A stretch of 62,114 nucleotides of DNA, filler included, from Hausera hauseri (taxonomy: Eukaryota), in assembly GCA_046269625.1 (NCBI GenBank). It is 10 parts of 10 records of this genome, joined end to end, with 100 filler letters (N's around TTAATTAATTAA, not from the genome) between each part and the next. Parts side by side here need not be neighbours in the genome. Positions count along the whole stretch, not along the records: positions 8,282 to 15,097 come from JBJURY010062884.1; 9 more parts are not named here. One strand, written 5' to 3'. The notes beneath the pieces are model-generated. The model saw only the letters and a program-made list of their open reading frames with translations. It did no database searches and was not told where the DNA came from. This document shows positions 1,328 through 53,345 of this stretch, in pieces (position 1 is the stretch's first letter; each line of letters begins with the position of its first letter). A program made the position numbers and the translations under genes.

Positions 1328-1399
1328 CTTTCTTGCTATAAGATTTGGTACCGCTTTTACCATATAATCCGTTATTATTCCTTCTTTATTTGTTTTAGC

Positions 1400-3364: not shown

Positions 3365-3531
3365 TATCCCACATAATCCGTCCTACATTGTAGTTGATGT
3401 CACGCAGCGGATTTCGAGTCGCAGTTACCATGAGCAGATTTGTTGCTATCCCACATAATCCGTCCTACATTGTAGTTGATGTCACGCGGCGGATTTCGAG
3501 TCGCAGTTACCATGAGCAGATTTGTTGCTAT
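3365..3531. repeat. Two-copy 82-bp tandem duplication
   Basis: tatcccacataatccgtcctacattgtagttgatgtcacgc...gttgc repeated, with 1 mismatch seen. Confidence 0.9.
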
Positions 3532-4283
3532 CGTCGTATCGTCGTTGATTTTCATCTGGCATCATTAAATTCTTTAAAACCTACTCACCTTTCAGTCACC
3601 ATAGTAGGAGTCAATTATAATTTATTAAATCATAAATTTTATTTATAAAAATATATTTACATATACAAAATCGTACAAAATTCATAAATTTTAAACAATG
3701 ACAAATATGGGATGAATAAACATTTACCCGTTGTCTCTTGTTGAGTATTTAATTCTTCTGTTCGTCGTCCGGCCATATCGAGCTTTGACGCCAAAAAATA
3801 ATTTTGATAATTTGGTAATTTGTAATGAATGTCCTCAGTTATTGGTTTCTGTTTCTTCCTGACAATCCGGAATCGAATATTTTAACTATCTATTGCAATT
3901 ATATAGATGTGTATATATACGTTCAAACCTATAACCAACCTTTTATGGCTATAGGGAAAATCCTCTTCAATTATAATGCAAGAGCTTCAAACTAATAATT
4001 GTATAAGCAAGTAACGAAAAATTTTTTGGTTGGTTCTGTTAAATCGTCTGCCCTTTTATAGTTGCTTTTCAATTCTAGAAAATGATTTTGAAAATTTAAT
4101 TTCCTGCTTGATTTCCTATTTTCTTTTAAATTCTTAATTGAATTTTGAAATTAATTTTGATTTTGGCTTACCACATTAGATGTTTTCAGGAAATTGATTT
4201 CCTGTTCTTGTCCCGTTTTCTAAAATCAATTTTAGAATTCGTCAGACACTAATTTCTCGATAGACATTAGTTTCCTCTTTCTA

Positions 4284-4370
4284 TAATGCTTCACGGGACC
4301 ACATATCCGTTCTAATTTACCTTACCATTACGCTAATGCTTCACAGGACCACATATCCGTTCTAATTTAC
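4284..4370. repeat. Direct duplication, period 50 bp
   Basis: taatgcttcac(g/a)ggaccacatatccgttctaatttac at 4284 and 4334. Confidence 0.85.
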
Positions 4371-4675
4371 ATTACTACTACACCAATCTCCGGATGTTTC
4401 TGTCTACCTTAGTCTCTATTTTTCACAGAAATACATGTATCATGAGTGACTGTTACGATTTGAGAATCGTTGTTTAATTAGAATGGTTTTTTGTTTAATT
4501 AAAAAAAATATTCAATCATCCCATACTGTCGGCTGTTCATGGTTACAGTTTATGTACATGCAGCAGTGAAGGAATAGATACCCATCAAAGGGTTTTAACA
4601 TAAACTAAGAACTAAGAATTGAGATGTCAAAATATTTATTAATTATAAAAAAAATTCACAAAATTCACATGTTAA

Positions 4676-4744
4676 GGTGTAAAAAGAGTTCGAATGTCAA
4701 AGTGATTATGGTGTAAAAAGAGTTCAAATGTCAAAGTGATTATA
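4676..4744. repeat. Two-copy 34-bp tandem duplication
   Basis: ggtgtaaaaagagttc(g/a)aatgtcaaagtgattat twice. Confidence 0.9.
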
Positions 4745-6530
4745 GGGTTTTCAAATTGTTTCTCTGATTATGCGAGGAGTCGGTCGAATCAGTTTAAGCC
4801 TCAACACTCGTTAAATTAAAAACAAATTCGTTAATGTTATCCATATGATTTGCAAGACGAAGCATCTGAAGAATTTATATAACGTTCGCATAATAAAATT
4901 CCTCTAACATCACTTACATCCTTATTAAAATATGGGACTATATTCATTATTTTACCACTGAACATGAATTTTATTGAATTCAACTCACAAATTTTCTTAA
5001 TTTTTAATAATTGTTCATTGTATTTGAAACTACAAGAATATAAACTTACTTTAATATTAATCACAGCTTTATTGGAATATAAAATTCTTTTCTCTATTTT
5101 ACTATTTAATCCAATACTCGTCACTTAGTTTTAAATTTTTCTCAATCTCAAATAATAGTTCATTAATTATGAAAATGAACAAAATTATGCTCAACTTAGT
5201 TTGTAAAATACATACAACCATTCTGATTCCCTCTAACATACAAGCAACTTTTCTCATGAAACAACCCACATCAACAATTGTGAAACGGAAAAATCAAGAA
5301 CAACTAACGATATAATTAGAACAATCTCTAACCGCTTTAAACCTCAATTCACACGTAATCAATATTTTTTCGCCAATGCTATTTTTGTCATTATCTATCA
5401 AAGAGTCAGACTCAACTTTGGCATTTTCATTGCCTGTTTCTTCAATTTTAACATACTTGTCTTTTCTAACTTTTTATCGGTTTTGTCTTTGTTAATATGT
5501 TTAATACTTTCACTTTTCAAATTTTGTCCGGTATCGTATATTAAATGTTTTGTCTGTTATTGTCAAACCCTTGATGGTATCCCTACCATTACTGTCATTT
5601 GTAAGATAATTGTTACCTAAAGTGGAAAAAATAACCATGCAATTAAATAATGAAACAGAATTTTAGTAAAAGGTAATTTTTAAAACAAATTCAAATGATA
5701 TTGCGAAATACGCGAAGAATATTGTTTCACTTGATCTATTAGAATTGCTAATTTATAAAAGTTACAAAATTGTCCAAGTCAATTTACAAAATTAATTAAA
5801 CCAGATGACTAGTCACCCATCATACGACCTGAGACATACAAAATACATAATTTTGGAAATTCTCTATTGATTCATACGAACCACCAAAATTTGGAAATTC
5901 CCTATTAAGACGTATAAGTCACGAAAATTTAAAATCCACTATCGATTTGCATGAGACACGAAAGTTTCAAAATTTCTCCCTACCAATTCATGCGATAGTG
6001 ACAATTTCTAAAATCTCAATTGGATAACGAATTAGATATCAAAATTCTCAATAATGATTTAGGAATTTCCAAAATTGGACTATCAAAGTTGATTAAATTG
6101 TTGTAGGTAATATATGGTAATATCTGAAAATCAGGGAGGGAACAATTCAAAAGTAGTTTGAACTTGTTGTTTCATCACACTGTTATATAGTAAATGAATC
6201 ATCACATCATTAATGTTATTATTGTAGGTCTCGGGCGCATCCACGCCGTCCACATCGTCGCCTAGCTTGCGTAAGTTTGGAAAATCCCCGACTACTGGCA
6301 TGTCCGCTTAAGCATAATTTGATCTTTTGTAATTACTCATTGCAAAGTAACACCAGTTTTTAAAAATCATGTTGTATCTCAAAATACTCATTTGAAAAAA
6401 ACTTTTCGAAAATTCCAAAATAAAGTTATACTTTTAATATTACATTTTTAATTTAAATTCATGGTCAAATTTATAACATTTAAAAATGTTTCTAATTTAA
6501 ATTTAGAATTTCCGTTCTCGATTATATCCT

Positions 6531-6548
6531 CACATTCCCCTTTTTTAA
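6531..6548 (-). promoter_or_regulatory. Polypurine tract and start of a 3' LTR
   Basis: Minus strand AAAAAAGGGGAA-TGTGAG lies directly downstream of the integrase remnant. Confidence 0.6.
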
Positions 6549-6549
6549 G

Positions 6550-7100
6550 AATCTTTGTAGTTTCTCGACGTTTCTCTCCAAGGTTTGGCTATCTTCATGT
6601 CGTAGTACGCATCGCTTGTCGTGAACTTTCTTAATGATCGTGAACGGGCCTTCGTATTTGTCTTTCGCCTTTGTTCCCGATTCCTTCCGTACCAGCACCC
6701 GATCCCCTACTTCAAACGTCCTTTTAACTGTGGATCCTTCCTGACCCTGTGTGTTCCTTTCTTCCGTTCCCTCTTTTTGTCCATACCGTCTTTCTCTATA
6801 TATCTTTCTTCCAAATATTATCTCTGCTGGGCTTTTACCCGTCGTTCAACGTAAATTCTATTTCTGTTCGTGTGTCCTCCCAGTCCACTCTCGATTTTTC
6901 TGCTATCGTGGCATTTATATATTCCCTGATTGTTTGAAATTGTCGCTCGATTATGCCATTTGTTTTGTGGTGGTATGGGCTTGAGTAGCACACTTTTATA
7001 TACATTGATGACGCCATGTCTTTTATCAATTTTGACCCAACTGCTTTCTCGCAGTCTGTATGTGTTTCTTTTGATGCTCCGTATTTGAAGATCCATTTCT
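6550..7100 (-). pseudogene. Ty3/Gypsy integrase C-terminal remnant
   Basis: SSPYHHKTNGIIERQFQTI...W...IEFTLN (rve catalytic Glu region), then a GPY/F-like segment. Confidence 0.7.
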
Positions 7101-7309
7101 TTTCTATCTCTGCTTTGATGGTTGCTTCGTCTTGCCTCGATATAGCAATTAGGATTTGGTGTCTACTGTCCTGATCTATCATTGCTAAAATGTATCTTTT
7201 TTCTCCATGTCTCCTTTATTGGTCCACAGATATCTATATTTTCTCGAATGGCTTGTTTGCTGATTAGTTCACTGCTTCTTCCTTCATGCTCGTTGTCAAG
7301 GTTTTACTT

Positions 7310-7830
7310 CGAAGTCTCTGTAAAGCTCGACATGACAATAAACCAAGAAAAGTCAAAATTATCTCAAAGAAAGATATCGTTCCTGGGACACATACTAGAA
7401 GAATGCACTATGAAACCCTATACTGTTCGATTCCAGACTATCATAAAACGAAAAGAACCATAATCCAAAAGTGAAATGGATAAAATAATCGGTCAATTCG
7501 CCTACTACGCTAATGGTATCCCAAAATGCTCCGAACATACAAGCCAGCTGACATCTGAAAAAGAAACACTTTCTCATAAAGGATTAACCGAAAAGTCAAA
7601 AAGTCACTCATAACACTTAAGAAACTTCTTAAAGAAGTAACCCTCCGCTCCATCAATTAATTTCTCCAACTAACAATGGAAACCGATGCATTATATAGAG
7701 CACTACGCGGAATACTTTCTAAATCCAGTAAACCAGTCACATTTTACTCCCGAACTCTGCACAAAGCGGAAAAACAACAGACCATCACACAACGAGAAGC
7801 TTGCACCATCACCGAATGCTGCAAAAATGG
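7310..7830 (+). pseudogene. Ty3/Gypsy RT / RNase H remnant, opposite strand to the adjacent integrase
   Basis: INQEKSK...ISFLGHI (RT end) and METDA...KPVTFYSRTLHKAEK...ITQREA (RNase H). Confidence 0.7.
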
Positions 7831-8181
7831 AATTACTAAATACAGTCAGTTCCTTTCGTTAATATTATCACAGACCAATAAACCGTATCCCTTATACTCG
7901 GCAATTATAACTTTTATAAGTGAAAAATAATTTAACATTAAAAATTGAAAATGTCTTTGGAAATCTATTATTTTTTCTACTTATAATAAAAATTTCTTAA
8001 CACAAATGTCTCGTTCTGGAGTTTGTGATACTAATTGTCGACGCAACCTTTCAATATGCAAACGAAAAGAACAAATTCAGCCTTCGCTCCATTTCATTAA
8101 GTGAGGATCCTGTTGAGAATTAAAATTCCAAACTCGAGAACAAGACATTTCTGTTAAGAAATTTGAAATAAAAATTTTGAT

Positions 8182-8281
8182 NNNNNNNNNNNNNNNNNNN
8201 NNNNNNNNNNNNNNNNNNNNNNNNNTTAATTAATTAANNNNNNNNNNNNNNNNNNNNNNNNNNNNNNNNNNNNNNNNNNNN
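8182..8281. other. Artificial contig linker (also at 15098-15197, 22705-22804, 27077-27176, 33220-33319, 37393-37492, 47820-47919, 52974-53073, 57081-57180)
   Basis: Identical N44-TTAATTAATTAA-N44 blocks that place stop codons in all six frames. Confidence 0.97.
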
Positions 8282-9126
8282 ATTGTGTCTAATTTGGATT
8301 TATTATGGTCTACAGTAAAAATATGTTTAAAAGAATTAATTGTATATAGTATTTCAGTAAAATGATACTACAGTATATGAATATACATTACTTCGTAATC
8401 TTTATAGTGTTTAACAACTTATCAGACAACTTATTTAATAGTTTATTGGTCAAATACTTAGCTGTTTGAAAAGTTGTAAAACCAACAATGTAGCAGTTCT
8501 TTGGTGACAGCCTTTAAATATAAAGTTACATATACAGAAGATTCTGCTGACATTAATGCATTTTGTTTCTAGCAGTCAAACTATAGGAGCGCTTATACGA
8601 AAAAACTAATGAATATTAAGTGTGCTACATCCAAACAATATAAATAAACATCTGTTTTGAGAACTTTCCCACTGATCCCTTTTCCCTACCATAATCGTCA
8701 ATAAACGAAATTTATTCGTCAATATGTCGAAATAAAACTTTGAGATCCCCCAACGTCGTATTTATTTGAATTCTTTCGAAAATACTTCCGTTTATTGCAT
8801 ATTTCTATGAAGCAAAGAGAAAAAATGACTTTTGAATAAACATGTACAATCAGGTGATTTTATCTTACAGTACAAGCACTGAGAGGACCAGGGTGGTCCC
8901 GTAAAAAAAAATTTCCAGTTTTATTTTTCAAGATATGCCGTGTTATATTCTTCGAAAATCCAAAACGCTGTTTCTTGCAAGCGCGATAAAAAATTAAACT
9001 ATTTACACAAAAATTGCACAACCTGACTTTTCTGTGTATGTTAGTTATGGAACTGTGAATTGATCATAGTTTCTCATCTGTTTTCATTTTGTTTGGCATT
9101 TCAATTAATTTATGTTACGTAATTCT

Positions 9127-10100
9127 ATATTGATGTAAATAAATGGGTAAATGCCTGTGACGTATGTGCAACCAAGCAAAAGAAGACGAAAATTACATGA
9201 CCGAATTAAAACCAATTGAGGTACCCGATATGCCCATGCAAGCCATGTCGATGGATATTGTAGGACCTCTTCCTACAACTTACAAGAACAATAAGTATAT
9301 CTTAACTTGTATTGATCGATTAACTCATTTCGTCGAGTTCATAGTACTAATTGATCAAAGGGCAGAAACCTTGGCAGAAGCCGTAGTAAAAAAAATCATA
9401 TGTCGATATGGATCCCCAGATCAGATACTCACAGATCGAGGAAGAAATTTTACCAGTCAACTTTTTAAGAAGATTTCCAAAATATTTGAAATCGAAAGGT
9501 TAACAATTACTGCATATCATCCTCAATGTAATGGAATGGTGGAACGAATGAACGCAGCCGTCATACGCATATTATCAACAGTAGTAGCAAAGGACCAAAA
9601 AAATTGGGATGAGTTTCTGGAAGGAACCCAATTTGCGATTAATACTACACCACACCCGGCGACAGGATTTACACCATTCTTTATGATGTATAGACGTGAA
9701 GCCTTGTTACCCACGGACTGAGAACTGACGCCATACACGGTTAACCTCGAAGATTTAGAACAAAACTTCGCAGAAGTATTACAAACGCGATTGCAAAAGT
9801 GTTGGGAAATCGCCAAAGAATTATCCCGAGAATATCAAGAGCAGTTTAAAAAGCAATACGATAAGAAAGCAAAACCACATGATATAGAACAAAGAAATTG
9901 GGTTTATGTACATTACCCAGTAGCCAAGAAAGGCACCTCATTAAAATTAACTCGCACAGGCAGAGGACCGTACGAAGTTACCAAAGTTACGCCAACTACA
10001 ATATATATCAACAAAAATGGAAAGGAAGAAGTTGTATGAGTACAAAGAGTTGTCAAGACAGAGATACGACCCAATAAACGTTATAATTTACGCTAACGCA
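9127..10100 (+). pseudogene. Gypsy integrase (Zn finger end, DDE core, GPY/F), with stops and frameshift
   Basis: CDVC; SMDIVGPLP; ILTDRGRNFTS; TAYHPQCNGMVERMN; RGPYEV. Confidence 0.92.
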
Positions 10101-10120
10101 AAATAAAAACTTCCTCAATA

Positions 10121-11545
10121 GTGGCTAGACCGATATCGTACGTTCAGATAGTTTTAGCATTATCACTAATTGTTTCTTATATTCCGGGAACAAATCTCAA
10201 TGGTGGCACGACGAATTTACGCCAGGATATGTATATGGAATTCAGAAAAGTGGATCAAAATTGGAAATTGTCAAAACAGAAAAGAAACCGACAGCCGAAG
10301 AAATTCAAAAACAAGAAAACACCAAATTATTACAATCCATGACAATTCATTATTATTCGCCAAACTCCGTATGCGTTGGATTTAAAGCTTGGAAACTACA
10401 TCACGATTCAGGAAGACTTCAAATTGTCTTACTTGACGTAACCACAAAAGAAGCAAAAAATTGTGATTTTAAACCTGGAGATTACATGCAGTGTTGCGAC
10501 ATAAAGTTTGGACGCACTTATAACCTCACCTGTCGCTTATACTTACCAGACTTGTCCGAAGTATATATTGAAACGAAACCACAATTCCAATTAGTCGTCC
10601 CTGCATGGAACCGACATCACGGGGTGAAACCAAACGAAATGCTACAATCCACTGACCCAGATATAAGAATATTAGACGAAAATATCAAAAGAATCTCTGT
10701 GAATAAGGACAAACAATGCATTCAAGTAAATGCCCAAACAGGATTAACTATTAGTCAGGAAATTAGCATCACATTTGAAGCAACAGTTGGACCGACTCCG
10801 AATATAGGATATTGTTCTATCCGTGCAGGCGTGCAACATCTATGCTGCAGAAGTCCTGTGAACCAAGAATTTAAGATAAAATTCGATTGATATTAAGTAC
10901 GGCCTAACAAACCAAGTGTAAAACTCCGAACTTACTATCCAGAAAATAAAATTTGGAAAATTTCAGTGGAAACAACCACCAGAAGACCGACTACTCGGGT
11001 TGATGCTATTACGAGAACCGCTACGTCGGGCAGTATGTCTAAAAGAAAATTAGGAAGCACACCTATTAAATATTCGGCGCATCAATCTAAGATTGTTTTC
11101 TTTGTGGAGGAAAAACAAAACTACTATATACACATAAGTTGCGAACAACGTAAAATAATCACATTGTAATGTTATCTAAAAACACTTATCAAACAGAAAG
11201 CAATTTACTGAAACCACAATCTGAATACATAGTACAAGTGCATGCAGAGAACAAACAAATCCAAACAATGACATTGCATACCTTAGCCGAAATTCACGCA
11301 AGATCGCATACATACAAAGATATGGACGACGAAACTACAACGTCATTTACTACTCGAGCACCACTAGGATTAACTACCTTACCAATTGCATCTATTGCAG
11401 CACTGTCAACGTTTGTCCTCATCATATTAATTGCGATTTTTCGATTAGTTACCAAAAATTGTTATTCTAAGTGTCCTAAAAATTCAGAATAGGAATTAAG
11501 GAAATTGGAAAAACCTGTAGACCCATATGATAAAATAACCTCACA
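10121..11545 (+). pseudogene. Env-position type I membrane protein: signal peptide, Cys-rich FN3-like ectodomain, TM helix (frameshifted)
   Basis: Hydrophobic IVLALSLIVSYIP; FN3-like F-strand motifs IKFGRTYNLTCR and LKPQSEYIVQVHA; TM IASIAALSTFVLIILIAIF; tail motif YDKI. Confidence 0.65.
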
Positions 11546-11613
11546 ATTAGAGAACAGGTTATTCTGTCATCAAACAAAGAATTGGTTTGGTTTAAAGCCA
11601 TACTTTGTTTTAA

Positions 11614-11650
11614 GATTAACCTTTATGTTTTCTTTTTCAGACTGGTAAGT
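11614..11650 (+). promoter_or_regulatory. Branch point, polypyrimidine tract, 3' splice acceptor, 4-nt exon and 5' donor
   Basis: gattaac-ctttatgttttctttttCAG|ACTG|GTAAGT; the same layout is present in copy B. Confidence 0.65.
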
Positions 11651-11662
11651 AGTCAGATTCGA

Positions 11663-12900
11663 ATGAACCCAAGCCGACATAGAATCGACAAAGAGAAGCA
11701 TACAAGCCGACCTAGTATTGACGAATTCTTGCAGCGATATGTGAGAGTGCGGATTCCGAATTCAAAGGCCATCTATATGCAAATCAATACAGAATTACAA
11801 GGAAAGGGCTTCGTTCGATACGGAAAAGTTGGTGAGATACCAAACGGTCTGAAAGGAACGACCGAAGAGGCCAGAGTTATATATTTATACGCCTGGAGAG
11901 AGGATAAAGATGCCAGAGCATATCCTTTGCAACAGATCGCCCAGTACATAACGGACAAGGAGCAAAGAATATATATACACGTGACCGACGGAGAAATCTA
12001 TTATCGGCTGAAAGACCAAAAATGGGACTCTTTCCAAGGGAGGCAAAGTCGATTTAACACGTTTGTAATTGAGAGTAGGAACCTCCATAATTATGAGCTG
12101 GAGTTTCGGGTGGTCACTTTACCTGTAAAGATGATGATCGAAATAACTAAAGAGGAAATAATACTTATCGCATTACCGCCCCTAGACGTTAGGCAAAGGC
12201 CAACAGAAGAAGTACAATACGCGCATCTGAATTCATTCCGACTCGTGGCCGATGACAGAAATATCCGGATTGCCGCAATAAATTATGGAGAAGGAGAAGA
12301 AGGGAATTACATCCCCATTGAAATATCCATACGAGGAGAAAACGGGGTAGAGATCTATTCAAAGATTATTAACCCAATGAAAAAAGTACGAGAAACCTAC
12401 GCAGAAGTAACCGGAATCAAACAAGAACGAATAATCTACGAAACGGATTCCAAGTTAGTGCAGGAGAAAGTAGCACAATGTCTGTACGGATACGTCTTAG
12501 TGGGGTATCAACTCGAAAGGATGATAGAAAAACTAAACATACCAGTAACTCATCTTGCCGGAACCAGAGAGATAGAAACCCACCAATTATAAAGAGACAA
12601 ATGGAGATTCAGGACAAAGAAAAAAGGTCATCTATTACTGACTGTAGAAGGTCGGTTTAAGTTAATGGTATAGGCGATGACCGGAGGAAACATGAAAGTT
12701 AGCCTACTGCTGACCGCTAGCCAGAGGTCCCAATATTTAAGAGATATAAATGCCGGATTAAGGTGGGATCATGAGTGGATTCCCAGTAATCCCGGACAAA
12801 ACTTACGGAATTTTCCCAAACTGGAAGAATCGATGCAAAATATAGAAAACACTTCTGTCCATACTCTCCACCGAGAAACGTCGAGGCGACACCTAATTGG
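11663..12900 (+). pseudogene. Accessory ORF: unknown N-terminal domain plus DEDDh (ISG20/REXO4-like) exonuclease-fold domain lacking catalytic residues
   Basis: IAAINY...IEISIRGENGVEIYSKIINPMKKVRETYAEVTGI...VQEKVAQCLYGYVLVGY...GTREI follows the DEDDh pattern, but the ExoI DxE motif is absent. Confidence 0.6.
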
Positions 12901-13800
12901 AACTATCAAATAACTATCAAAGGATTGAAACAGAGAAAACAGAAGACGAATGGCAGCCCAACGAGGAACCGAGTACAAGTTACGACACCATGACCAATGA
13001 TAATTCATTTAAAGTACCCGAAATTCCTTGGAAATATTTAGCAGAAAAAGATAGAATTTCAGAAATCGAAACCGGGAAGACGGCCAAAAGCAAAACCTCC
13101 TTCTTCAATTATTTATTTAAGAAAAGAAGTAAAGAAGGAGAGAAGGAATTGAAGGAGGGACACAAAGCGGACAGTAAGGATTCAAAACAAAAAGAAGCCG
13201 ACAAACCGAAAACACCAGCAGAAGGATCCTTAAGAACAAACCCACAGTTTCATGTGGAGAAACCTACGAGAATACCGAGTAAACAAAGAGAACAGATAAC
13301 AGAAATAAACGTCATGCAGAAAAGGAACTCTACAGAAAATGTACACTACGCCATTACGGCGGATTACCCCAGGATGTTAATAGCCACAGAATATTATAGT
13401 AAACAGAAGATTAAAGAGGCAATGTTCTTTGTCAAATCAATGCCAGACAAGTTTACGAGAACACCTATGTCTGGGAAAACCCCAAAATCGGAAAGTATGT
13501 GGCCCCAATATTTCAATCGAGAAGGAATGACAAACTTTTAGTTCCCGTAGATGGGTCTGTGAAATCATTGCTTAAAAAGCAATAACAAAAATACCGATCG
13601 ACTGGTGAAGTTCCCGACTTAGATCGAGATACTGTCAGCGATTGGACCATAATATCTGTGGGATGCGATCCTAAGAAAAGCTCTATAAACCCAAAACAAA
13701 AAAGAATATATGCCTATTTAAATCAGGACGCCAATGGATTGATGATAGAGCCTATCTAGATTATGATAAGAGTCGATTTGGACTACGAAAACTGGGAAAA
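12897..13800 (+). pseudogene. Lys/Glu-rich linker plus conserved unknown domain (frameshifted)
   Basis: EYYSKQKIKEAMFFVKSMP / YENTY...PKIGKYVAPIF...VPVD matches EEYVSRWKIKEAVFYIRTVP...HENAY..PKLGRYLTPLF...VPVD of 27532-27774. Confidence 0.6.
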
Positions 13801-13809
13801 GAAGAAAAT

Positions 13810-14184
13810 AAATGCCCCGTATGTGAGGCAAACCTGAAACAAGGGTACATAATGCTGAATAACCCCGATTACCGACATAAATATTGCAGATTTTGTGTAG
13901 AAAAATGGACACTGAAGAATGGGAAAACCACATGTCCAGTATGCCGAGTGGAGGGTGCCGACCTAAATTACTACTCGAACGGTAGTTGCACTAGAATAGT
14001 GAGGATAAAGCCCTACCATAGTTATGAACTAGAGACAAATTCCAGAGAAGAACAGCCTAGTATCAGCTCTAGCCCCAGTCTAAGAAAACGCATGGAAATG
14101 TTACGACAGCCGCGACATCACGGCACCTCTCCTGACGCAATGGGCACATCCGAGGATGCCGCTCAGGGAGAAGAAATGTTGTAG
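13810..14184 (+). CDS. RING finger domain, terminal accessory ORF of copy A
   Basis: CPVCEANL...(Y)RHKYCRFCVEKW...TTCPVCR; the third Cys is mutated to Tyr relative to copy B. Confidence 0.75.
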   Translation, partial: KCPVCEANLKQGYIMLNNPDYRHKYCRFCVEKWTLKNGKTTCPVCRVEGADLNYYSNGSCTRIVRIKPYHSYELETNSREEQPSISSSPSLRKRMEMLRQPRHHGTSPDAMGTSEDAAQGEEML

Positions 14185-14970
14185 AGACGTCAAATATTGA
14201 GAAGACGTCCAAATTGTAAATAATATTATAAGCAGCATATTGTAAATATTTACTATTTTATGATATTTGCTTATTGATGTACGAACTTAGGAATTTGTTC
14301 AAATATAAAGGAGGCATTTATCAATAATTTGGTATATTTTTCAAAATTTTTGGAGAAAGTGTTGAATTTATATTAATTTTTAAATTGGATAATACTGAAA
14401 AATTCAGTTAAAACTGTTTATAATTCCAAGAATATGAAATGAAATCAGTCACGTACACAGTGGCATTAGTATATAAAGTGCAGCAGATATGAAAGATTTG
14501 AGTTATTTGAAGTTTATTGGAGCTGATTTGAAGATTTTTAGATTTGTTCTTGAGAAGACTGTTGTTGATCAAAATCCAAAGGATAAATCTGTCGAGTTAT
14601 TAAAAGGACATTTGACACCGTGCTTCAGTGATTATCTTGGAAAGATTGGTAATTGTCTTGTTAATAAATTTTTATTGAGTAAATTTATTCATAGTTTTGC
14701 TTCACTTCTTAAAAGCGATTTGACGTCCCTAAGGTTAAATTCATTACGATAAACTCCATAGCTAAGAGAAGAATTTGTTTAACATTTTGCACAGGACCGC
14801 AAGCAATCACCAGCATTGTAACGAAATAATTAACAAGGTACATTCTGTCTATTTGATAACGATAGACCGATCTGCGTAAATTATCAAAACTTCAAGTGTA
14901 ATTATTGTTATATATTTGGAGTTGAATAAGGGCCACCCCAATATATAGCACAAGTCTTCAGTGTTCTACA
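14165..14970 (+). repeat. PPT (14165-14176) and probable ~790-bp 3' LTR (14180-14970)
   Basis: AGGGAGAAGAAA followed by TGTAGA...TCTACA terminal inverted hexamers. No second LTR is available in the window to confirm the boundaries. Confidence 0.55.
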
Positions 14971-18242: not shown

Positions 18243-20081
18243 CTACCCATACGTTTTTTGCCTTCCTTTGCGCATCTCGCTGGAAATCAATTTATTATTC
18301 TTATAATGATTAAATACTGTGATGCCAGTTTCCGGATCTCTTATTTCCTCCGTCCTGTCAGGCCCTTTTTTCTCCGACTCCGCAGCCCGTCCGGCCTGTT
18401 GCTGCACAGCCGCAAAATTCCTTATCACATCCGCAAGCGAATTCAGATTTACAACCTGATCCTGCAGACGATCAAGCCGTGTAAAAATCACTTTTTGATA
18501 ATTCCCGGCTGTTTTTGAGTAGGTATCCACTTTATCGTTTATAAGAGAAGTCTGGCTGTATTGCTCATTTGCTGAGGCATCAATCGCGCTCTTAATGTTC
18601 TCGATTGCCCGCACGCTTGTATCCAGGCTACCCTGAATCGACTCAATCTGCCTTCTTGCCTCATTTGAAAAACGCACGATCTGGTTAAATATTCCATCAG
18701 AAGCGCTCTTCGCTTTTTGAGCATCCTCTTCTTGATCATCTAATAACTGTATCATTAATCTGGCAAGTTCATTCTGCATTACAGAGGCTTTATTGCTCAA
18801 CTCTTCAGCCTTAGCCTCCATATCAGCCTTTCCGCTGGCAGCAGCAGAGCTGATAATGCTTGTAAGCTTAGCTTCTGCATCGCCAATTCTTTCTTCACAG
18901 GCCAAGCTGCCATTATTAATGGCTTCCGATATTCCCTCCAGTCTATCTCCAACATACGCAAAGGCCTCGTCAGTTTTGGAAATGATATGTCCCTCTGCCG
19001 CAAACGCCGTTTTCCTCTGTTCTGTATCAGACTGCTCAATCTTATCCACAATTTGTATTGTACAATTGTTGGTATTATCTACCGAATCGTCTACCTTTTG
19101 CTCCAATTCTCCAATCTGACTTTGGATATCTTTCAAATTAGAGGCTTCTTTCTCTCCAATCTCATTTGAATTGCTGATAATGTTTTTTTCTGAAGATATG
19201 ATTTGCCTCCTGACATCCTCATAAGCCTGCTCATCACCCTCGTTCTTTTCAACAATCTTTGTAACAATGGCGTTTCCTATATCGCTAATGGATTGGACGA
19301 TACGTTCTGTATCCTGGACTGTGGATGTCTTGACTCCAGCGAGCGTCTGTGCAATATCTGCCGCAAGCGTCGCCGTTGCTTTGTCTGATTCTTCAATCAT
19401 ATTCCGGATCTGCAGCTGGGCCTTTTCCTGATTCACTCTATTCGCATCATCCCGGGTTTCACTGGCCTTTTGGTTCTTTGCTGCATCTGAGATCATCCGC
19501 TCTACTGCTTCTGCTATTGCTGCATCCGTCTGTTTTCCAGCAACTGATACAAGCGTGGCAATTTGTTCCGTACTGCTGCGCGCATTATCTGCCATATTCC
19601 TAGCCTCGTCTTTGATCAGGCTCTGCGTGCTCATAATATTTGATGACAGTTCCTTTGTCTGTGATTCAGCAGCCTCTTCCACTTTTCTCTTAAGGCTCGC
19701 ATCCGTCAGTTCAATTGCTCCACGAATCTCCGTGATGGCTTTTGCAGTGTTTTCATCTATTGACCTCTTAAGGACTTCAGATAACTGTTCTTCCAGTTCA
19801 TCTATGTGCTTCTGCAGATTATTGATACGATCAAATATATTTTCTTGCCTGTTTGCCATATAGGCCTTGCATTTTTGTCTGGAATAATTATACATAATCG
19901 CAATGTACGCCGTTGCCAGGATGATTAAGACAATCATAATAATATTACAGGCCCATAACGGTATCACTATACTTAAGAACCCATAGTCAGCAATTCCCAA
20001 TACTACAAAAACCGCCGCCACAATATACCAATACCTGGCCCTCTCCTCAAAGAATCGTTTCATCCCATTTTGCATCTTCAT
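18243..20081 (-). CDS. Bacterial hypothetical protein: two N-terminal TM helices and a long coiled coil; probably 3'-truncated at the junction
   Basis: RBS (GGAGG) precedes ATG at 20081; two hydrophobic segments; ~500 aa of helical sequence; the stop lies at the compositional break. Confidence 0.8.
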   Translation of the reverse strand: MKMQNGMKRFFEERARYWYIVAAVFVVLGIADYGFLSIVIPLWACNIIMIVLIILATAYIAIMYNYSRQKCKAYMANRQENIFDRINNLQKHIDELEEQLSEVLKRSIDENTAKAITEIRGAIELTDASLKRKVEEAAESQTKELSSNIMSTQSLIKDEARNMADNARSSTEQIATLVSVAGKQTDAAIAEAVERMISDAAKNQKASETRDDANRVNQEKAQLQIRNMIEESDKATATLAADIAQTLAGVKTSTVQDTERIVQSISDIGNAIVTKIVEKNEGDEQAYEDVRRQIISSEKNIISNSNEIGEKEASNLKDIQSQIGELEQKVDDSVDNTNNCTIQIVDKIEQSDTEQRKTAFAAEGHIISKTDEAFAYVGDRLEGISEAINNGSLACEERIGDAEAKLTSIISSAAASGKADMEAKAEELSNKASVMQNELARLMIQLLDDQEEDAQKAKSASDGIFNQIVRFSNEARRQIESIQGSLDTSVRAIENIKSAIDASANEQYSQTSLINDKVDTYSKTAGNYQKVIFTRLDRLQDQVVNLNSLADVIRNFAAVQQQAGRAAESEKKGPDRTEEIRDPETGITVFNHYKNNKLISSEMRKGRQKTYG

Positions 20082-20094
20082 TTCCTTCCTCCCT

Positions 20095-21045: not shown

Positions 21046-21071
21046 AAACTCACCGTCATTCTTTATTTTTT

Positions 21072-21108
21072 TGTATTATACCAAATCAGAAGGACAGAAA
21101 ATGTCACT
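21072..21108 (-). promoter_or_regulatory. Extended -10 promoter (TGgTATAAT) with upstream GACA-N5-TGTC palindrome, candidate WYL operator
   Basis: Minus strand GTGACATTTTCTGTCC...TTTGGTATAAT lies about 30 nt upstream of the WYL start. Confidence 0.45.
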
Positions 21109-22303: not shown

Positions 22304-22317
22304 AAGTTCCCTCCGGG

Positions 22318-27176: not shown

Positions 27177-27456
27177 ACTCTATTGTTTTCGCACGAGAAA
27201 AGTATTTTAACTTGGATATTTCTGCTCGGCATACTGGGCATGTCGTTTTTCCATTAATCAGGGTCCACCGCTCTAAGCAATCGCGGCAGTGTCGATGTCG
27301 ACAATTTCTATTAGCAAGAATCACGTATCCTTGCCATAAATTAGCCTCACATACTGGACAAAAACCTTCAGTGTTATTGTCTAACTCACAATCCGTGACC
27401 CATGTTATTTCTTGGGAAAAGAGTCCTTTGGTATTTTTATACAGATATCCGTGCAA
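27177..27456 (-). CDS. RING finger domain, copy B (runs into contig end)
   Basis: CPVCEANLWQGYVILANRNCRHRHCRDCLERW...TTCPVCR. Confidence 0.8.
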
Positions 27457-27531
27457 TTGTTTCTAGTCGGGATCAATTAACCTTTTCCGTGGATCTCCAT
27501 TAACGGCTATTAGGGTCCACTCAATTACGGG

Positions 27532-28199
27532 TTAGGCGTCTAGGTCTAGGATCCCCATTTTCTTGTACTGTTTCTTTATTTTTATTCTTGTCTGGTTGTC
27601 GACTGGTACGGTTATTCTCTTAGTTCCTATTTTCGATTTAAACAGTGGAGTTAGATATCTGCCTAACTTGGGGTCAATTCGTGCATAAGCATTTTCATGT
27701 AGCTCCAGTACTGGTACTGTCCGAATGTAAAATACCGCCTCTTTGATCTTCCAACGACTTACATATTCTTCCATTTTCAGGATGCTAGATTGTTCTTCCG
27801 TGTCTTGTGGTCTTCTGTGGTTATTATTTCCTTGTCTTGTCTTCTTTTTAGAACATTCACTTTCGTAAGGATTTGTTCAGTTTGGGTTGATTCTTTTTAT
27901 TTCTTCTTTAGAAATCCGAATATTGATTTCTTTTTCTTTTCTGGAGATGGGTCTCTCAATTTGGGCCTTTTGGTTAATGTTCCTTGATGGCTCTCTATTT
28001 TCTTTGTTTTTATGGGTACCTGGAATCCATATGTAAGGTTACTGGGTTTATGTTGGGAAATATCTTCCTGCTTTGAGACTGTAAATTGGATATTACTATC
28101 TTTGTTTGATATCGTAATTTTCATGTTATTATCCCTTTTGGGTTCGACAATCCGTATTGGCGAATATGGATGAAATTGCTTTCTGTGGCCAGGATTCAA
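27532..28199 (-). pseudogene. Linker plus conserved unknown domain, copy B
   Basis: KKSIFGFLKKK and WKIKEAVFYIRTVP match SKTSFFNYLFKK and QKIKEAMFFVKSMP of copy A. Confidence 0.6.
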
Positions 28200-29332
28200 T
28201 TCCTATAGGTTTGTATTGCTCTGCAAGTTATTTTTGGGATTCAATGGTAATCATCCATGATCCCATGTGATCATGGCGTAAATATCACGCAGGTATTGTG
28301 TCCTTTTGGTAGCGGACAATTGTCGGTTGATTTTATAGTAGGTTCCGGTCATGATTTCTATCATCGCCTTGAAATGCGTTTCCATGGTCATAGGAGCGGG
28401 TCAACTTACATTATCCATCCTTTTTTTAATCTTGGGGTAAGCCCAAAATTCTCGCATCCCTGCTATATTTTTGGGCCTTATTTCTAATTTGTCTACTTGT
28501 TCTTGTGTTTGGAATCCTGCGATCATACACCCGTACAAGCAGTGGTTTAGTTCTATCTCTACGGCTTTTGTGTCTTTCCCATTTATCAAGTCTTCTTTTC
28601 TTATGCCCGTTATTTCCGCATAAGTTTCTTTTACTCTTTTTCGAGGAGCAATTAGCCTGTAGTAGACTTCTATCCCGTTCATATCTTTAATCAAGACTTC
28701 AATGGGAATGGAGTTTCCGTCGTCTCCTTCTTCGTAATTTGTTGCAATGATACGGACATTCCGTCCATTCTGTACCAGTTTATATGACCATAAATGTTGG
28801 CCTATTTGGTCTTCCGTTGGATACTGATGGTATATCAGGGGAGGCAAGGGTATAATCGGAATTTCCTCGCAGGTGATTTCTATCATAAGTTTTACTGGTA
28901 GGGCTGTGATCCTTATTTCTATTTCTTTTTCAATTAAGCTTCCTCCGCGCAGCTTAAAAGTACTAAATTTATACTGCCGCTCTTTGTTCGAATCCCAGTT
29001 TTGTTCAGTCAATCTATAGTAAACTTTCCCTTTTGCTAGATGTATATATACGTCACTGTGCGTTTTAACTCACATTTTAGTAGGTTCCGTAGTTTGTAAG
29101 ATCGAGCATCTTCGTTGCTCCGCATAGCATATAATCGTATTATTCGGTTTTCTTCTATGATTCCTTTTAAAATGTTGGGTATTTCATTTACTTTATGGTA
29201 CTCCGTTAATGGTTTGTTCTGTAATTCCAAGTGTATCTGCCTGTAGAGGGCTTTAGAGTTTGGAGTTATTATTGTCGCATTCTCTTGCAAAATTCCATCG
29301 ATGTCTGAGTAAGCGTTGTTACTGGCTACCAT
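28200..29332 (-). pseudogene. Exonuclease-fold accessory ORF, copy B
   Basis: PNSKALYRQIHLELQ; ALPVKLMIEIT; IIATNY...IPIEVLI...YAEITGI...CLYGCMIAGF, clearly homologous to 11663-12592. Confidence 0.65.
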
Positions 29333-29335
29333 AAT

Positions 29336-29372
29336 ACTCACCAGTCTGAAATAAAACAAAATAAGATTAATC
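29336..29372 (-). promoter_or_regulatory. Splice acceptor, ACTG micro-exon and donor, copy B
   Basis: gattaat-cttattttgttttatttCAG|ACTG|GTGAGT. Confidence 0.65.
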
Positions 29373-29443: not shown

Positions 29444-30670
29444 TCAGATTATTTTATCATACAAATCACTTTGGTAAACCACCATTATCCCTCTATCCTT
29501 ATTTTTGGGCTGGTTTTTACAATTTTTGGCAATTACATAAATTGACGCAGTGGAGATTAATAAGACGAACGCTGATACTCCGATAATTGATACAATAGGT
29601 AAGGTTACTAATGGTGTCTGTGTTGTCATATATGTAGTAATTGTGTTTTTGTGTAACTTGACCTTTTTGTAATCATGGGTAACTATCTTCTGCTAAAGTT
29701 TGTAAGGTGATTGTCTGATCCTGCTTTCCGGGTGCGTTAATTTGTATTATGTATTCTGTCTGAGATTTTAAAGATTTACATTCAATTTGTGGTGTATTTC
29801 TTATGAGTACTATTCGGGCGGTAGACTTTTTAGTCGAGATTTCCATTGAAATTTTCCTAATTCTATTTTCTAAATACTAGATTCGTAATTGTACACTTGG
29901 TTGATTTGGTCGTATCTCATATAGGTCAAATCGTATTTTGAAATCTTGGTTCACAGGTATTTTACAGCACGGTTTTTGCACACCATCACGAATGGAGCAA
30001 TATCTTATGTTCGGAGTTGGTCCTATTAGTGCCTGAAACACGATACTGATTTTCCGATTGCCGGTTAGTTCCGTCCGAGTATTTACTTGAATACATTGTC
30101 TTTTCTTATTCACAGAGATTTTCTGGATATTTTCATTTAGCAGTCTTATGTCTGGGTCAGTGGATCTCAACATTTCGTTCAGTTTTACTCCATGATGCCT
30201 GTTCCAAACAGGAATAACTAGTTAGAATTGTGGTTTTATTTCGAAAATTTTAGATTATTTTGGTAGGTACATTCGATAGGTCAGATTATAAGTATATCCG
30301 AAATCTGTGTCGCAACATTGCGTACGTTCTCCGGATTCAAAGTCACAATTCTTCGTTTCTTTTGTTGTTACATCATCTAAGACAATTTGGATCCTTCCAG
30401 AATTTTGATGTGGTTCCCATGTTTTAAATCCAACGCATGTGGAGTTAGGCGAGTAGTAGTAGATCGTTACTGCTTGTAATAATCTTATATCTTCTTGTCT
30501 TTGATTTCATTCGTCTGTTGATTTCTTTTCCGTTTTAATGCTCTCTGATCTTGCTCCACTTTTCCGAACTCCATGAATTTCGTACCACCAGTTAGCTTGT
30601 GTTTTCGGGATATAGAAGGAAATTAACGAAAATGCTAAAATTATTTGAAAGTACGATATTGGTCTATTGA
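29444..30670 (-). pseudogene. Env-position FN3-like type I membrane protein, copy B
   Basis: Signal RPISYFQIILAFSLISFYIP; STDPDIRLLNENIQKISVN; LKSQTEYIIQINA; TM IVSIIGVSAFVLLISTASIYVIA; YDKI. Confidence 0.65.
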
Positions 30671-30699
30671 TTATGGAGGATGTTTTTGTTTTCTTTCTG

Positions 30700-32960
30700 T
30701 GTTGTTGCGAGCTAGATCGCAAATTGTAACGTCTTTCTGGCCTTATTTCTGTTTTAACAACTCTCTGAATAGATACTACCTTTTCTTTGCCATTTTTATT
30801 AATGTACACCGTAGTTGGTGTGGTTCAAATAACTTCGTAAGGTCCTCGTTAAGTGCGACTAAGTTTTAATGATGTACTTTTCTTTGCAACTGAATAGTGT
30901 ACGTAAACCAAGTTTCCTTTCTCTAATTCATGAGGTTTGGCCTTCTTATCATATTGTTTCTTAAATTGTTCTTGATACTCGAGAGTAAGCGTCTTATCTA
31001 TATCCCAGCATTTTTGCAGTCTCATTTGTAGGACTTCTGTAAAGTTTAGCTCTAAATCTTTTGGATTTGCATGATACGGAGTCATCCCTAAGTCCGTAGG
31101 TAAAATCGCTTCGTTTCCATACATCATAAAAAATGATGTAAATCATGTGGCGGGGTGTGGGGTAGTATTAATAGCGAATTGTGTTTTTTCTAAAAATTCA
31201 TCCCAGTCTTTTTGATCCTTTGCTACTACGGTTGATAAGACACGTATAACTGTGGAATTCATACGTTCGACCATCCCATTACACTGAGGGTGATACGCGG
31301 TAGTAGTTAATTGTTCGATTTCGAAGATTTTAGAAATTTTGTCAAATAGTTCGCTTGTAAAGTTTCTTCATTTATAGATCATATTTGATTTGGCGGTCCG
31401 TATCTGCAGATAATTTTCCTTACTACTGCGTCTACTAATGTTTCCGCTTTCTGATCGATTAGTGCGATTAATTCCACAAAGTGTGTTAAACAATTTACGC
31501 ATGTCAAAATATATTTGTTACTTTTATAAGTTGTAGGTAAAGGTCCTACTATACCCATAGACATAGGTTGTATAGGTCTATCTGGTACGTCGATAGGTTT
31601 TAATTCTGCTATATAGTTTTTTACTTTTTTGTTTTGTTGCGCAGACTTCATAAGCGTCCACCAAATGTTTCACGACAATATAAACACTTGGCCAGTAATA
31701 CTTATTCAATATTCTTTCTAATGTTTTCTTTCATGACATATGTTTAGCTAAATGTGAATCATGTTCAGCCATTAACACTTCTGTCCGTAATTCTTTTGGA
31801 ATAACTATCAATTTTCGTCCCTTTTGTTCGTAATATAGGATATTATCCGGATTTGATGCATAATATTTGTGTCCGTGTCTTTGTAAGTGTTTCTTTAGTT
31901 GAAGTCCTTTTGGTACTCGTCTTGTTCGGCAAATTTAACTATTTGTTGGATAACTTTATCTTTAGCTCATTCGGAAGCAATTCTGATTGTCTTATTTAGT
32001 GTTAAGATATGTTGTCGCTCGACTAATTCATTGAGCTGAGCCTTTTCTATGGTCGTAATCGTATTTGTTTTTGTTTTAAGTCTTGATAAAGCGTCTGTGT
32101 CAATATGTTTACTTCCGTGTTTATATTGAAATTCGATATTGTACCGCGAAATTTCCTCAATCCATCGATTTAGTTTATACGTCGGGTTATTAGTCCGTCC
32201 CTTTATAGTGATAACAGCTTTATGATCGGTATCTATAATAATTTTCTGTCCGTAAACACAGACATTGAAATGTCTCAAGACTTCTTTTACGGCTAGTATC
32301 TCTAATTCAGTGACTGAATAGTTTTTCTCAGCTTTTTTAAGCGTTCGTCCTCCGTATGCAGTTGAATGTTCCAATTCTTCGTTTTCTCATTTCTTAGCCA
32401 ATTTATAACCAATTCCTTTTTTACTTGTGTCCGTCTTTATTATGAATGGTAAGTTGAAATCGGGGTATCTCAACACTGGTTTACTTGTTAAAATTTACTT
32501 CATTTCGTCGAACGCCTTCTGTTCAACATCGGTTTATTTCCATTTGATGCCTTTTTTCAATAGCCGATATAACGGCGCATTTATTTTCGAGTTATCCGAT
32601 ACGTAGGTGGCATAATATCCGCATAAACCTAACCAATGTCTTAATTCTTTCTGATTTTGTGGTTTCATACAATCGGATATTTTGTTCAATAAAGGTTTGT
32701 CTGGCTTTGATCCTCCTTCTCCAGCTATATGTCCAAGATAAGATACAGCATTTTTTGCCAATTTACATTTCTTTTGTTTCAGTTTTAATCCTGCCTGTTC
32801 CAAACGCATAAGAGTATCTTTAATGTCCTTTAAATGTTCTTCTTCTGTTCTTGACGCTATCATTACATTGTCTAGATATGCAAACGCATAATCTAGACCC
32901 ATTAGCATCTTGTTCATCATTCTAGTAAAAATAGCTGGGCCGGTTTGTGGTGCCGCGGAT
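30700..32960 (-). pseudogene. Gypsy pol (RT, RNase H, integrase), degenerate
   Basis: FAYLDNVMI (YLDD decayed); VSYLGH; WLGLCGYY; AEKNYSVTELEILAV; TDHKA; DALSRL; IVGPLP. Confidence 0.92.
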
Positions 32961-51069: not shown

Positions 51070-52076
51070 TTATGTAAATAAGCGACATTCGTAGAACTTC
51101 TTTGCCAACTCCTTATAAGTATTAGTGGTTAACCGGTATTTGCGGATAGTCTCTTCGTGATAAAGAATATCTCGAACTCCGGCTATCCGCCTGACTGGGC
51201 ATTTGCAGTGATTAATTACCATCTCCAGCACGTCGGCTCCGATTATAATTCTATCTGTGAAAACTTCTGTAATCTTCTGGTAAAACTCATTTGCGTCCAT
51301 CTGGTTATTTATGTGGGATTCTGCCAAACCCGTGAGATGGGTATCAAAATTATTAATTCTTTGGCGAGGGAAAATGACACTATAGAAGAGTGTCTGGCCA
51401 TCCAATGCGATAACCGAACATTCGATCGGTTGCATTTGATTCCACTGGTCATAAGCTAGGTTGACAGCAGCTATGACCAGGTCGTCGTTAGTAATATTTT
51501 GTGTTCTTCTATAAGAGACGGTTTTGTATCGTACGTAGTCGGGTTCCGGAAGGTGAAAACATTTTCCTTCTGGAATCAATGGCTGAAACTTCTCATGCTT
51601 GATTATCTCGAATGCGATCATTATACGGTTAGAAAGAGATCGGACTTTTAGAGTGTTATCTCGTATGAATTTGTAATCAAAGGCCAACGCGTGATCGGGG
51701 TCTATATTGATCAAATCTCTTTGTATGGAAGTTTTACGACTCGTGGTTTTTATTTGAAATTTGCCTGCGATATTGTATATATTCATCGAATGATATCGTT
51801 CTGGAAGGATTATTAAGTCTTGAAGGTGAAAGGAAGTGGCCTTGGTTACTTGGATTAGGGCGAGAGATCTATTGCCCATGCTATATCCTTTAAGATTGTT
51901 GGGAATTTGTGGTGTCTGCGGATAATTCAAACTATAGGTGTAGTCATTATGGGTTACGTAGTACTGATTACTGGGCATAGCGTTTATTAGATGGGTCTTA
52001 GCGTTTGTGAACCAATGCTTTGATCGCGAAATTGATTGTACCTGGTGAGCTGTTGAGGTTCTTATTGAAGTTGATG
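51070..52076 (-). CDS. Divergent third homolog of the retroelement pseudo-exonuclease, preceded by a splice acceptor
   Basis: IAAVNL...PIECSVIALDGQTLFYSVIFPRQRINNFDTHLTGL...RIIIGA...IAGVRDI; acceptor tttctctttaCAG ends at 52077. Confidence 0.6.
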
Positions 52077-53345
52077 CTGTAAAGAGAAATGTCAATGGCA
52101 AGTCAATAACAATAACTACACGCAACACTCAAATTTACTGGGGGACCGTAAAAAGGTCGAACTGGAGTGGTAAGAAAGTCACTAAAGTCACAATGACAAG
52201 CAAGCTCATCCTTTCACTTGGGGGTAACTAATCCGTCTGCAGCAGATGATTTTTGCAATTACAAAAACAATGCTTGATCTGCAATCAAGCAAAGTATTCA
52301 TAAGGAAGTCCTACTCCATTTATAAAGACGAACTGGTGTAGACTGTGGATTCATGAAATAAAGTTCCATAGCTTCTCAGAGTTTTGGTGTCCATCAGCCG
52401 TAATCTTAAATAATCGTTTCTATAACACCAAGTTAATTCTATGGTGGAAAACCTGCGAAAATAATGTCTTCAGGTGCTTTCTATTTAAGTGTACGGCACT
52501 AAACCGCGCCTGCCCAATTCTTGTTCAGGGATCAGCTTCATGGAACAATGCACATTCCCATAAATGTCCCTTTCATCGTCCAATGAGCCAATGGAGAATA
52601 CACTCACTTAAATTTACAGTCTCCTATTAATTTGTTTGTTTAATGCTACTAAACTGTCAAGGACCGACATTGTTAGAAGTCACGATACATGTCCAAGAGA
52701 CTACGACTGCACCTGCTGCACAGAGCTAACGGTCTTTATTACAGTAGGTTGAACGAACGGTGACGACACACAAACTTTTAATTAAACAAATTAATAGCCG
52801 GATGTGTCACAAATTGGAGACGCAGCTTAGGAATGCTCTTGTGTTTCAAGCGTGATGTGAAAAGCCTGGGCTCGAACCCTGTGATAATACTGTAAAGTTG
52901 ATGTACAATTTTGACACATTTAATACACAAGAAACCATCCCTGATCCTAGCATGAGCTGGATCATCATGTTGTNNNNNNNNNNNNNNNNNNNNNNNNNNN
53001 NNNNNNNNNNNNNNNNNTTAATTAATTAANNNNNNNNNNNNNNNNNNNNNNNNNNNNNNNNNNNNNNNNNNNNAGAATAATCAAAAATTATGGTTTCCAA
53101 ATTATATCGACCATGTCATATGGTGAGCAGTAAATGATTATTTCCATCTATATTTGGTAAATGTAAGGGTGCTTGTGACCGGATAAGCATAAATATAAAG
53201 AAATCGTAGCACTCGCTCATGATCGCTAGATGAATAATAGTGTGACCATTAGAGTCTTGGCATTTTTATGTGTCGGATGTGTTATTGCTTAATTGAATTA
53301 TGGCTTCCTTGGCCCTTTCGTCATTTTGTGGTGCTACTGCCAACA

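Follow-up and report, generated by a model that had tools for sequence, protein, structure and literature searches.

Two decayed Ty3/gypsy copies in Hausera hauseri with a predicted surface protein as Pol extension and a likely spliced pseudo-exonuclease and RING gene

The window (the whole stretch of 62,114 nucleotides analysed here) consists of contigs from Hausera hauseri (GenBank assembly GCA_046269625.1) that are placed end to end with N spacers between them, and two of these contigs carry decayed copies of a Ty3/gypsy (Metaviridae) retroelement: copy A (9126-14970, plus strand), which starts in mid-integrase, and copy B (32941-27177, minus strand), which starts in mid-reverse transcriptase (RT) and is cut by the contig end just past a RING finger. 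The two copies are collinear, with 72 % DNA identity across 1,868 nt of integrase (IN) and the N-terminal half of an ectodomain (blastn) and 38-78 % amino acid identity in 16 collinear blocks reaching the RING (tblastx), in line with the common domain order on separate contigs that a preliminary description of this DNA had reported. Stops and frameshifts occur in both. The Pfam order of RT, RNase H (RH) and integrase in copy B is that of Ty3/gypsy pol, and together with a polypurine tract (PPT) beside a TG-starting long terminal repeat (LTR) in copy A it upholds the earlier assignment to a complex Ty3/gypsy family. The best explanation, to which we assign a probability of roughly 0.6, is that A and B are 5'-truncated members of two sister families of complex Ty3/gypsy elements, in which a surface protein would extend Pol and a second, spliced gene (gene 2) would target RNA defences of the host. 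The features are as follows, P0002 denoting an intact relative of the gene 2 product (870 amino acids) and pLDDT the predicted local distance difference test score.

9126..10093 (plus): core and C-terminus of the copy A integrase, with truncated 5' end and 2 stops in frame (Pfam rve, 6.6e-14)
10097..10201 (plus): basic linker with hydrophobic signal-like segment, immediately after the integrase (hydropathy 1.96)
10231..11291 (plus): Cys-containing ectodomain, predicted beta-sandwich (Ig/FN3-like) repeats, in pieces, 61-65 % amino acid identity to copy B
11385..11441 (plus): predicted transmembrane (TM) helix (hydropathy 2.79), present in copy B too, with a short tail to the stop at 11492
11520..11650 (plus): conserved spacer ending in a predicted splice acceptor; exon from 11641, donor-like GTAAGT at 11645, 4 nt on
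11663..14184 (plus): gene 2, likely spliced; frameshifts and stops in copy A, one open reading frame (ORF) in the intact relative
11717..12160 (plus): AlkB/2OG-Fe(II)-oxygenase-like double-stranded beta-helix domain (P0002 model), without H-x-D...H triad
12260..12805 (plus): exonuclease fold of the ISG20/REXO-like DEDDh type without the catalytic acids (profile match to ISG20L2, E 1.2e-5)
12806..13361 (plus): variable, low-confidence linker, 27 % identical to P0002 (pLDDT <50)
13362..13783 (plus): conserved pre-RING domain of ~130 amino acids, 45-49 % identical to P0002 and copy B
13813..13944 (plus): C3HC4 RING finger (Pfam zf-C3HC4; alignment)
14165..14176 (plus): polypurine tract that overlaps the final codons of gene 2
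14177..14970 (plus): putative 3' LTR, start 14177 or 14180, right end uncertain
30717..32941 (minus): copy B RT (C-terminal part), RNase H and integrase (Pfam RVT_1, RT_RNaseH, rve)
29444..30716 (minus): copy B signal, ectodomain, TM and tail (TM at 29611-29555)
27177..29345 (minus): copy B acceptor and gene 2 (RING 27360-27229, contig end directly after)

In copy B, a single frame of 560 codons runs from the integrase core through the ectodomain with 7 stops, as compared to 38 expected in a random frame, and with zero stops between the integrase and the hydrophobic segment. In an intact relative from a metagenome, locus L015, the junction of integrase and surface protein lies inside one ORF of at least 3,219 codons. 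Because of this frame continuity, the predicted single-pass surface protein, which had been taken for a separate ORF, is an extension of Pol that continues the integrase frame. Its signal-like segment and TM helix stand as previously described, while the FN3 identity of the ectodomain is weakly supported: Pfam gave no FN3 match, Atlas leads to fn3 at 0.89, and a poor two-sequence model (pLDDT 41) matched Ig/FN3 sandwiches only with Z up to 5.8. Word-based searches found no ectodomain homologues among longer proteins (weak evidence), and a five-way ectodomain alignment gave no reliable homology. Between A and B, the proportion of synonymous differences (pS) at 10076-11030 is 0.56, lower than the 0.76-0.83 seen in other parts (integrase, gene 2), which hints at later exchange or recombination between the two families.

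L015 is one of 15 loci obtained from a metagenome scan; these come from two assemblies, include near-duplicates and are not independent. Its 5' part encodes a glycoprotein B (gB)-type fusogen (Monjiviricetes_fusion PF24664, E 4e-95, residues 263-902), a TM helix, two protease domains, a signal/ectodomain/TM module and a further protease, and its 3' part RT, RNase H, integrase, a second signal/ectodomain/TM module and a stop, followed by an exonuclease gene with intact site and by a small ORF; gag was not identified. Positions 1-9657 encode a single polyprotein, in which three domains are aspartic proteases and three parts are predicted membrane proteins (gB and the two modules). A stretch before RT, for which Pfam gave no match, we take to be dUTPase-like from its motifs. 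L015 is 39 % identical to copy B in RT-RH and 38 % to copy A in integrase (up to the R-x-Y-x-L-R end), as compared to 27 % for an unrelated gypsy integrase in the window, values that are suggestive only; the link to the window consists in a common gene 2 and a common tail order.

As L015, the one relative with context, has a gB-type fusogen of its own in front of pol, the post-integrase surface protein is probably an accessory glycoprotein and not a fusogen, and an upstream gB-type env in the element itself is slightly favoured by our analysis. Alternatively, the tail protein might itself be the env, acting as fusogen or in cell-to-cell spread, with families A and B devoid of gB. Its usual env position, its signal and TM segments and the lack of any gB-like match within the window would agree with this, but the 5' half, where such a gene would be expected from L015, is missing from both copies; moreover, the protein is predicted to consist of small beta-sandwiches, gave no F- or gB-type match in Pfam, and coexists with gB in L015. 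We therefore consider this alternative unlikely.

Between the TM helix and gene 2, the spacer is without codon periodicity (A vs B) and ends in an acceptor that ranks first by pyrimidine-tract score among 142 YAG sites in copy A and among 155 in copy B. The donor-like GTAAGT 4 nt downstream is the only GTRAGT in copy A, and copy B has a matching pair of acceptor and donor-like sites at 29345/29341. The splice site noticed earlier is thereby strengthened, and gene 2 is likely spliced, with splice-site use being predicted from the sequence. Among the 15 metagenome loci, YAG stands directly before ATG in five and 2 nt before it in two more. The notion that the whole cassette is translated as one polyprotein through the TM helix was rejected in view of the aperiodic spacer and of L015, where a stop and a 337-nt gap precede the exonuclease gene. 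Upstream of the exonuclease gene, L015 (9660-9995) and loci L007-L010 have a short motif in common (ACAGCTGT...) with donor-like sites nearby, which suggests small non-coding exons. The downstream ORFs of L015 each begin at an AG-ATG junction.

P0002 maps onto copy A at 11717-14181 in four frame pieces, and its C-terminus comprises the same residues as copy A over the PPT. Since this intact protein spans exonuclease, linker, pre-RING domain and RING, gene 2 represents a single ORF and not a series of separate parts; taken with the frame continuity from integrase into the signal segment, the four-part cassette of ~4 kb in the preliminary description gives way to a Pol extension plus one multidomain gene, likely spliced. 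The model of P0002 is confident only for about residues 55-410. It places in front of the exonuclease a predicted AlkB-like domain that was absent from the earlier account: residues 51-207 match the 2-oxoglutarate-Fe (2OG-Fe) oxygenases Ofd2 (Z 9.9, root-mean-square deviation (rmsd) 3.7, 139 aligned), ALKBH6 (Z 9.2) and P4H (Z 9.1) as well as ALKBH1 (Z 8.7) and FTO (Z 8.5), with Z 8.0-9.9 over 130-147 aligned residues to many family members. Cupins match the fold too, and Atlas gave no usable match for this domain.

A canonical H-x-D/E...H iron triad was not found as a conserved motif in 47 aligned rows (by alignment, with no structural overlay); H-x-D/E is present in 10 of the 47, at scattered places. 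Other polar columns are strongly kept, namely P99 (47/47), N100 (45/47), K103 (38/47), R110 (34/46), H146 (45/51) and E200 (46/54). This set would be compatible with an active enzyme that has a non-canonical site and modifies RNA or protein, and the AlkB protein of an orchid Gypsy element is an active N6-methyladenosine (m6A) demethylase (PMC9289625, part of the source). The scattered H-x-D/E occurrences and the match of cupins to the fold speak against it, and we regard such an activity as quite improbable.

The following domain (P0002 residues 243-419) has the fold of ISG20 (Z 16.6, rmsd 2.9, 158 aligned) with A-x-N in place of D-x-E at ExoI, which bears out the earlier reading as a pseudo-exonuclease. 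It is, however, of DEDDh and not, as the comparison with rotifer elements had implied, of RNase D-like (DEDDy) type, given that active relatives have His in ExoIII and match Pfam RNase_T. SUMO matches obtained with a single exonuclease sequence disappeared in the profile and fold searches. The pre-RING domain showed no Pfam or PDB sequence match, the only such matches in this region falling on the RING itself. The RING is confirmed by Pfam (zf-C3HC4) in both copies, with all eight zinc ligands in B and P0002 and the third Cys ligand missing in A. We predict the gene 2 product to be a pseudo-enzyme that binds RNA and carries a RING.

A gene 2 profile, searched against 1.84 billion representatives, gave 217 matches at E <=0.001, the best 150 of which were used; at least about 50 relatives among the matches listed have both the AlkB-like and the exonuclease domain, and no cellular gene with this domain pair was found among the matches examined. 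Word-based homologue searches recovered only P0001, the family alignment as query only P0001 and P0002, and scans of viral contigs and of genome contigs yielded no family loci. In an alignment of 52 proteins (51 of the 150 listed, with family membership assigned by eye, plus one cluster mate) and three window rows, D-x-E at ExoI is kept in 24 of 55 rows, and the full D-E-D-H-D set in 23 of the 45 rows that cover all sites. The set is absent, with A-x-N at ExoI, in A, B, C (a third window copy) and P0001-P0003. A Pfam scan found RNase_T in 11 of 35 relatives. A quick tree of 68 rows, including 14 cellular-like outgroup rows (P0140 was omitted as too short), set the 30 rows that lack D-x-E apart from the others by a branch with support of 91. 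The third, distant family member in the window (51073..52128, minus strand) is an ORF with AlkB-like domain and dead exonuclease, 21 % identical to P0002 (E 3e-13) and 59 % to P0003; it has an acceptor-like pyrimidine tract near its start and adjoins a DDE_1 transposase remnant (49772-50236).

The ratio of nonsynonymous to synonymous differences (pN/pS) between A and B is 0.17 in integrase, 0.34 in signal and ectodomain, 0.47 in the TM part, 0.42 and 0.41 in the AlkB-like and exonuclease domains, 0.45 in the pre-RING domain and 0.36 in the RING, all of these being rough bounds only, as there is saturation at synonymous sites and protein similarity guided the choice of blocks. Upper bootstrap limits are 0.21-0.62 (integrase, ectodomain, AlkB-like, exonuclease, pre-RING and RING), and the post-TM spacer has 0.68 with an interval up to 1.37. 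In 11 of 14 aligned blocks, conservation is higher at codon position 2 than at position 3 (p<0.01); the test was not significant in the signal, TM and post-TM spacer blocks. Judged from these patterns, the 3' module was under purifying selection, as had been surmised for the cassette. That it is passively transduced host DNA in neutral decay, as the stops and frameshifts throughout both copies might indicate, is hardly credible in the light of the codon-periodic conservation, the intact relatives, the ORF's end on the PPT in copy A as well as in P0002, and the lack of a cellular gene with the domain pair among the matches examined.

At the 3' end of copy A, TG at 14177 directly follows the PPT, and TGTAGA/TCTACA termini would give an LTR of 14180-14970. 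PPT and putative LTR are accordingly retained from the preliminary description; the right end at 14970 is not established, because deep cover runs on to 15090. A second LTR or a target duplication was not found in the window, nor was an LTR-like end recognised in the 15 metagenome loci. On copy A lie 9,411 contigs of run X1, which may be the sample of origin; they are mostly 85-99 % alike, and the element bins are 260-25,000 deep as compared to 1.5-3 in the flank, which is no measure of copy number and fits a large repeat family.

Summed up, we consider the element-borne architecture of Pol extension and gene 2 highly probable, and propose the following scenario. Signal peptidase would release the type I surface protein from Pol, with the integrase staying cytosolic; the fusion step would fall to a gB-type protein encoded upstream of pol, after the pattern of L015, and the post-integrase tail protein would serve in attachment or as a decoy. 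Gene 2 would be translated from a subgenomic spliced RNA. Its ancestral product may have been an active 3'-5' RNase of ISG20/SDN1-like type, whose likely targets were small silencing RNAs or RNA by-products, and the window lineage may have kept the folds as an adaptor that binds RNA or ribonucleoproteins (RNPs) and gained the RING, which would ubiquitinate host silencing, decay or other RNA-defence proteins. This counter-defence mechanism is put forward tentatively, at somewhat less than even odds, and the anti-silencing or ubiquitin-ligase function earlier proposed for the cassette is likewise only putative.

Gene 2 might instead serve the element's own cycle, by RNA binding, trimming, packaging or export, with the RING for turnover of element proteins. 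Both of its folds act on RNA, it is kept over very divergent lineages with or without catalysis, and 3'-end processing has been proposed for the rotifer DEDDy ORFs (Rodriguez et al., PMC5408684, part of the source). Ordinary Ty3/gypsy elements, however, replicate without gene 2, and the combination of RING and pseudo-enzymes is typical of viral immune antagonists, so that a role in the element's own cycle appears rather improbable to us.

Several points weigh against the proposed element with its defence-targeting gene. Neither copy holds gag, env, primer-binding site (PBS) or 5' LTR, both being 5'-truncated. The exonuclease gene is linked to RT/IN and env in only one of the 15 loci, L015, which moreover is an active-nuclease member with only 38-39 % RT/IN identity to A and B and an ectodomain without detectable similarity to theirs; the two-assembly origin of the loci and their near-duplicates count here as well. 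The order also varies: L003, L005 and L006 have a protease-like region (with a Pfam match in L006), signal/ectodomain/TM and the exonuclease gene with no RT/IN between, and may represent either a different arrangement of genes or elements that are not autonomous. L013 comprises a signal/ectodomain/TM module, two small ORFs and the exonuclease gene, and the remaining loci are too short for context. A RING was found in one of the 35 relatives scanned (P0002), the tree comes from a quick search and carries a long-branch warning, the model of the ectodomain is poor, that of P0002 has low confidence in its C-terminal half, and the pN/pS values only bound selection roughly.

Elsewhere in the window, the contig at 53074-57080 (minus strand) has seemingly two tandem decayed signal/beta-rich ectodomain/TM modules that resemble the surface proteins of this family, with no blastp similarity to A and B, and 1-977 (minus strand) has two RING fingers (678-977 and contig end) with more Cys pairs between and a weak match to the P0002 RING only. 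Polinton/Maverick-like remnants occupy 37493-47819 and 57181-62114, with rve integrase and adenain-like protease (Pfam), long inverted repeats (37570-38903/45805-47189) and stretches that we take from their motifs to be capsid-like and DNA polymerase B-like. Retroelement remnants unrelated to A and B lie at 6522-7930 (minus), 23464-25077 (plus) and 33588-34847 (minus) and are presumably an ordinary gypsy integrase, a BEL/Pao-like and a CsRn1-like gag; the latter sits inside a NOMO-like host gene fragment. Bacterial-looking WYL-domain and LysR regulator genes at 18243-22704, which lie on a contig with a eukaryotic-looking first part, may point to contamination or a chimeric assembly.

Extra cargo of each kind is known from other Gypsy elements, namely an exonuclease (PMC5408684), AlkB (PMC9289625) and a RING (PMC6431247), whereby all statements on cited papers refer to the available parts of their texts. 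GAG-ENV-POL errantiviruses with an env of HSV/gB type (HSV being herpes simplex virus) occur in Platyhelminthes, Bryozoa and Nematoda, including Smed_errantivirus_1-6 (Chary and Hayashi 2026, PMC13524379). L015 likewise has a gB-type env before pol, and by eye some motifs of this env recur in the supplement's Schmidtea rows, where VYQES is confined to three of these and AFQTG to Smed_2; here, env is known for the relative L015 and not shown for A or B. Exonuclease, AlkB, RING, fibronectin, accessory or splicing are not mentioned in the available main text of PMC13524379. Juno and Vesta of bdelloid rotifers (Rodriguez et al. 2017, PMC5408684) likewise have a DEDD 3'-5' exonuclease gene behind pol. 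Their ORF3 is RNase D-like (DEDDy), catalytically intact, without TM and in place of env, whereas the gene 2 exonuclease belongs to the DEDDh/ISG20-like type, is joined to an AlkB-like fold, has lost its catalytic residues in the window lineage and is combined with a RING; RING and fibronectin are mentioned 0 times in the available text of PMC5408684. Burro/GYPSM1 of planarians (Arkhipova and Yushenova, PMC6431247) share with L015 a huge polyprotein in which env precedes pol in the same frame, and their ubiquitin-related cargo includes, as here, a RING-type motif. They differ in their F-type env and in BIR, BCL2, MATH and ankyrin cargo upstream of pol, and a post-integrase membrane protein or exonuclease is not described for them in the available part of PMC6431247. 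The orchid Ty3/gypsy element (Alvarado-Marchena et al. 2022, PMC9289625) likewise bears an AlkB-type fold as extra ORF, which is recent, near plant demethylases and active; the window domain, in contrast, is a remote fold only, without the canonical triad and fused to an exonuclease. The cellular DEDDh exonucleases ISG20, ISG20L2, REXO4 and SDN1 have the fold in common with gene 2 (Z 16.6, 15.8, 12.6), and like them about half of the gene 2 relatives have all catalytic residues; unlike them, gene 2 is element-borne, has the beta-helix domain in front and lost the residues in the window lineage.

No paper on a retroelement gene with AlkB-fold, DEDDh and RING was found in the literature outside subscription journals and repeat databases, so that the combination, which the preliminary description had not recognised, still stands as such within this scope; because of the same scope, the elements may be catalogued without an AlkB/DEDDh/RING annotation. 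The gene 2 product apparently constitutes an undescribed accessory protein family. A bolder view, which we hold to be possible at best and rather doubtful, is that these elements belong to a diverse, undescribed group of complex retroviruses of invertebrates, in which a gB fusogen is assisted by several Ig/FN3-like surface proteins released from one polyprotein, together with HIV-like multiple splicing and a dedicated antagonist of RNA defence that turned from a small-RNA nuclease into a pseudo-enzyme ubiquitin ligase.

To our knowledge, counter-defence proteins are known from few animal retroelements. The gene 2 family would provide a candidate that exists naturally in active as well as inactive form and either with or without RING, making a shift from enzyme to adaptor directly testable. 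It would mean that these elements carry cargo beyond what env-centred surveys have described, and would show that some invertebrate Ty3/gypsy elements match complex retroviruses in genome complexity.

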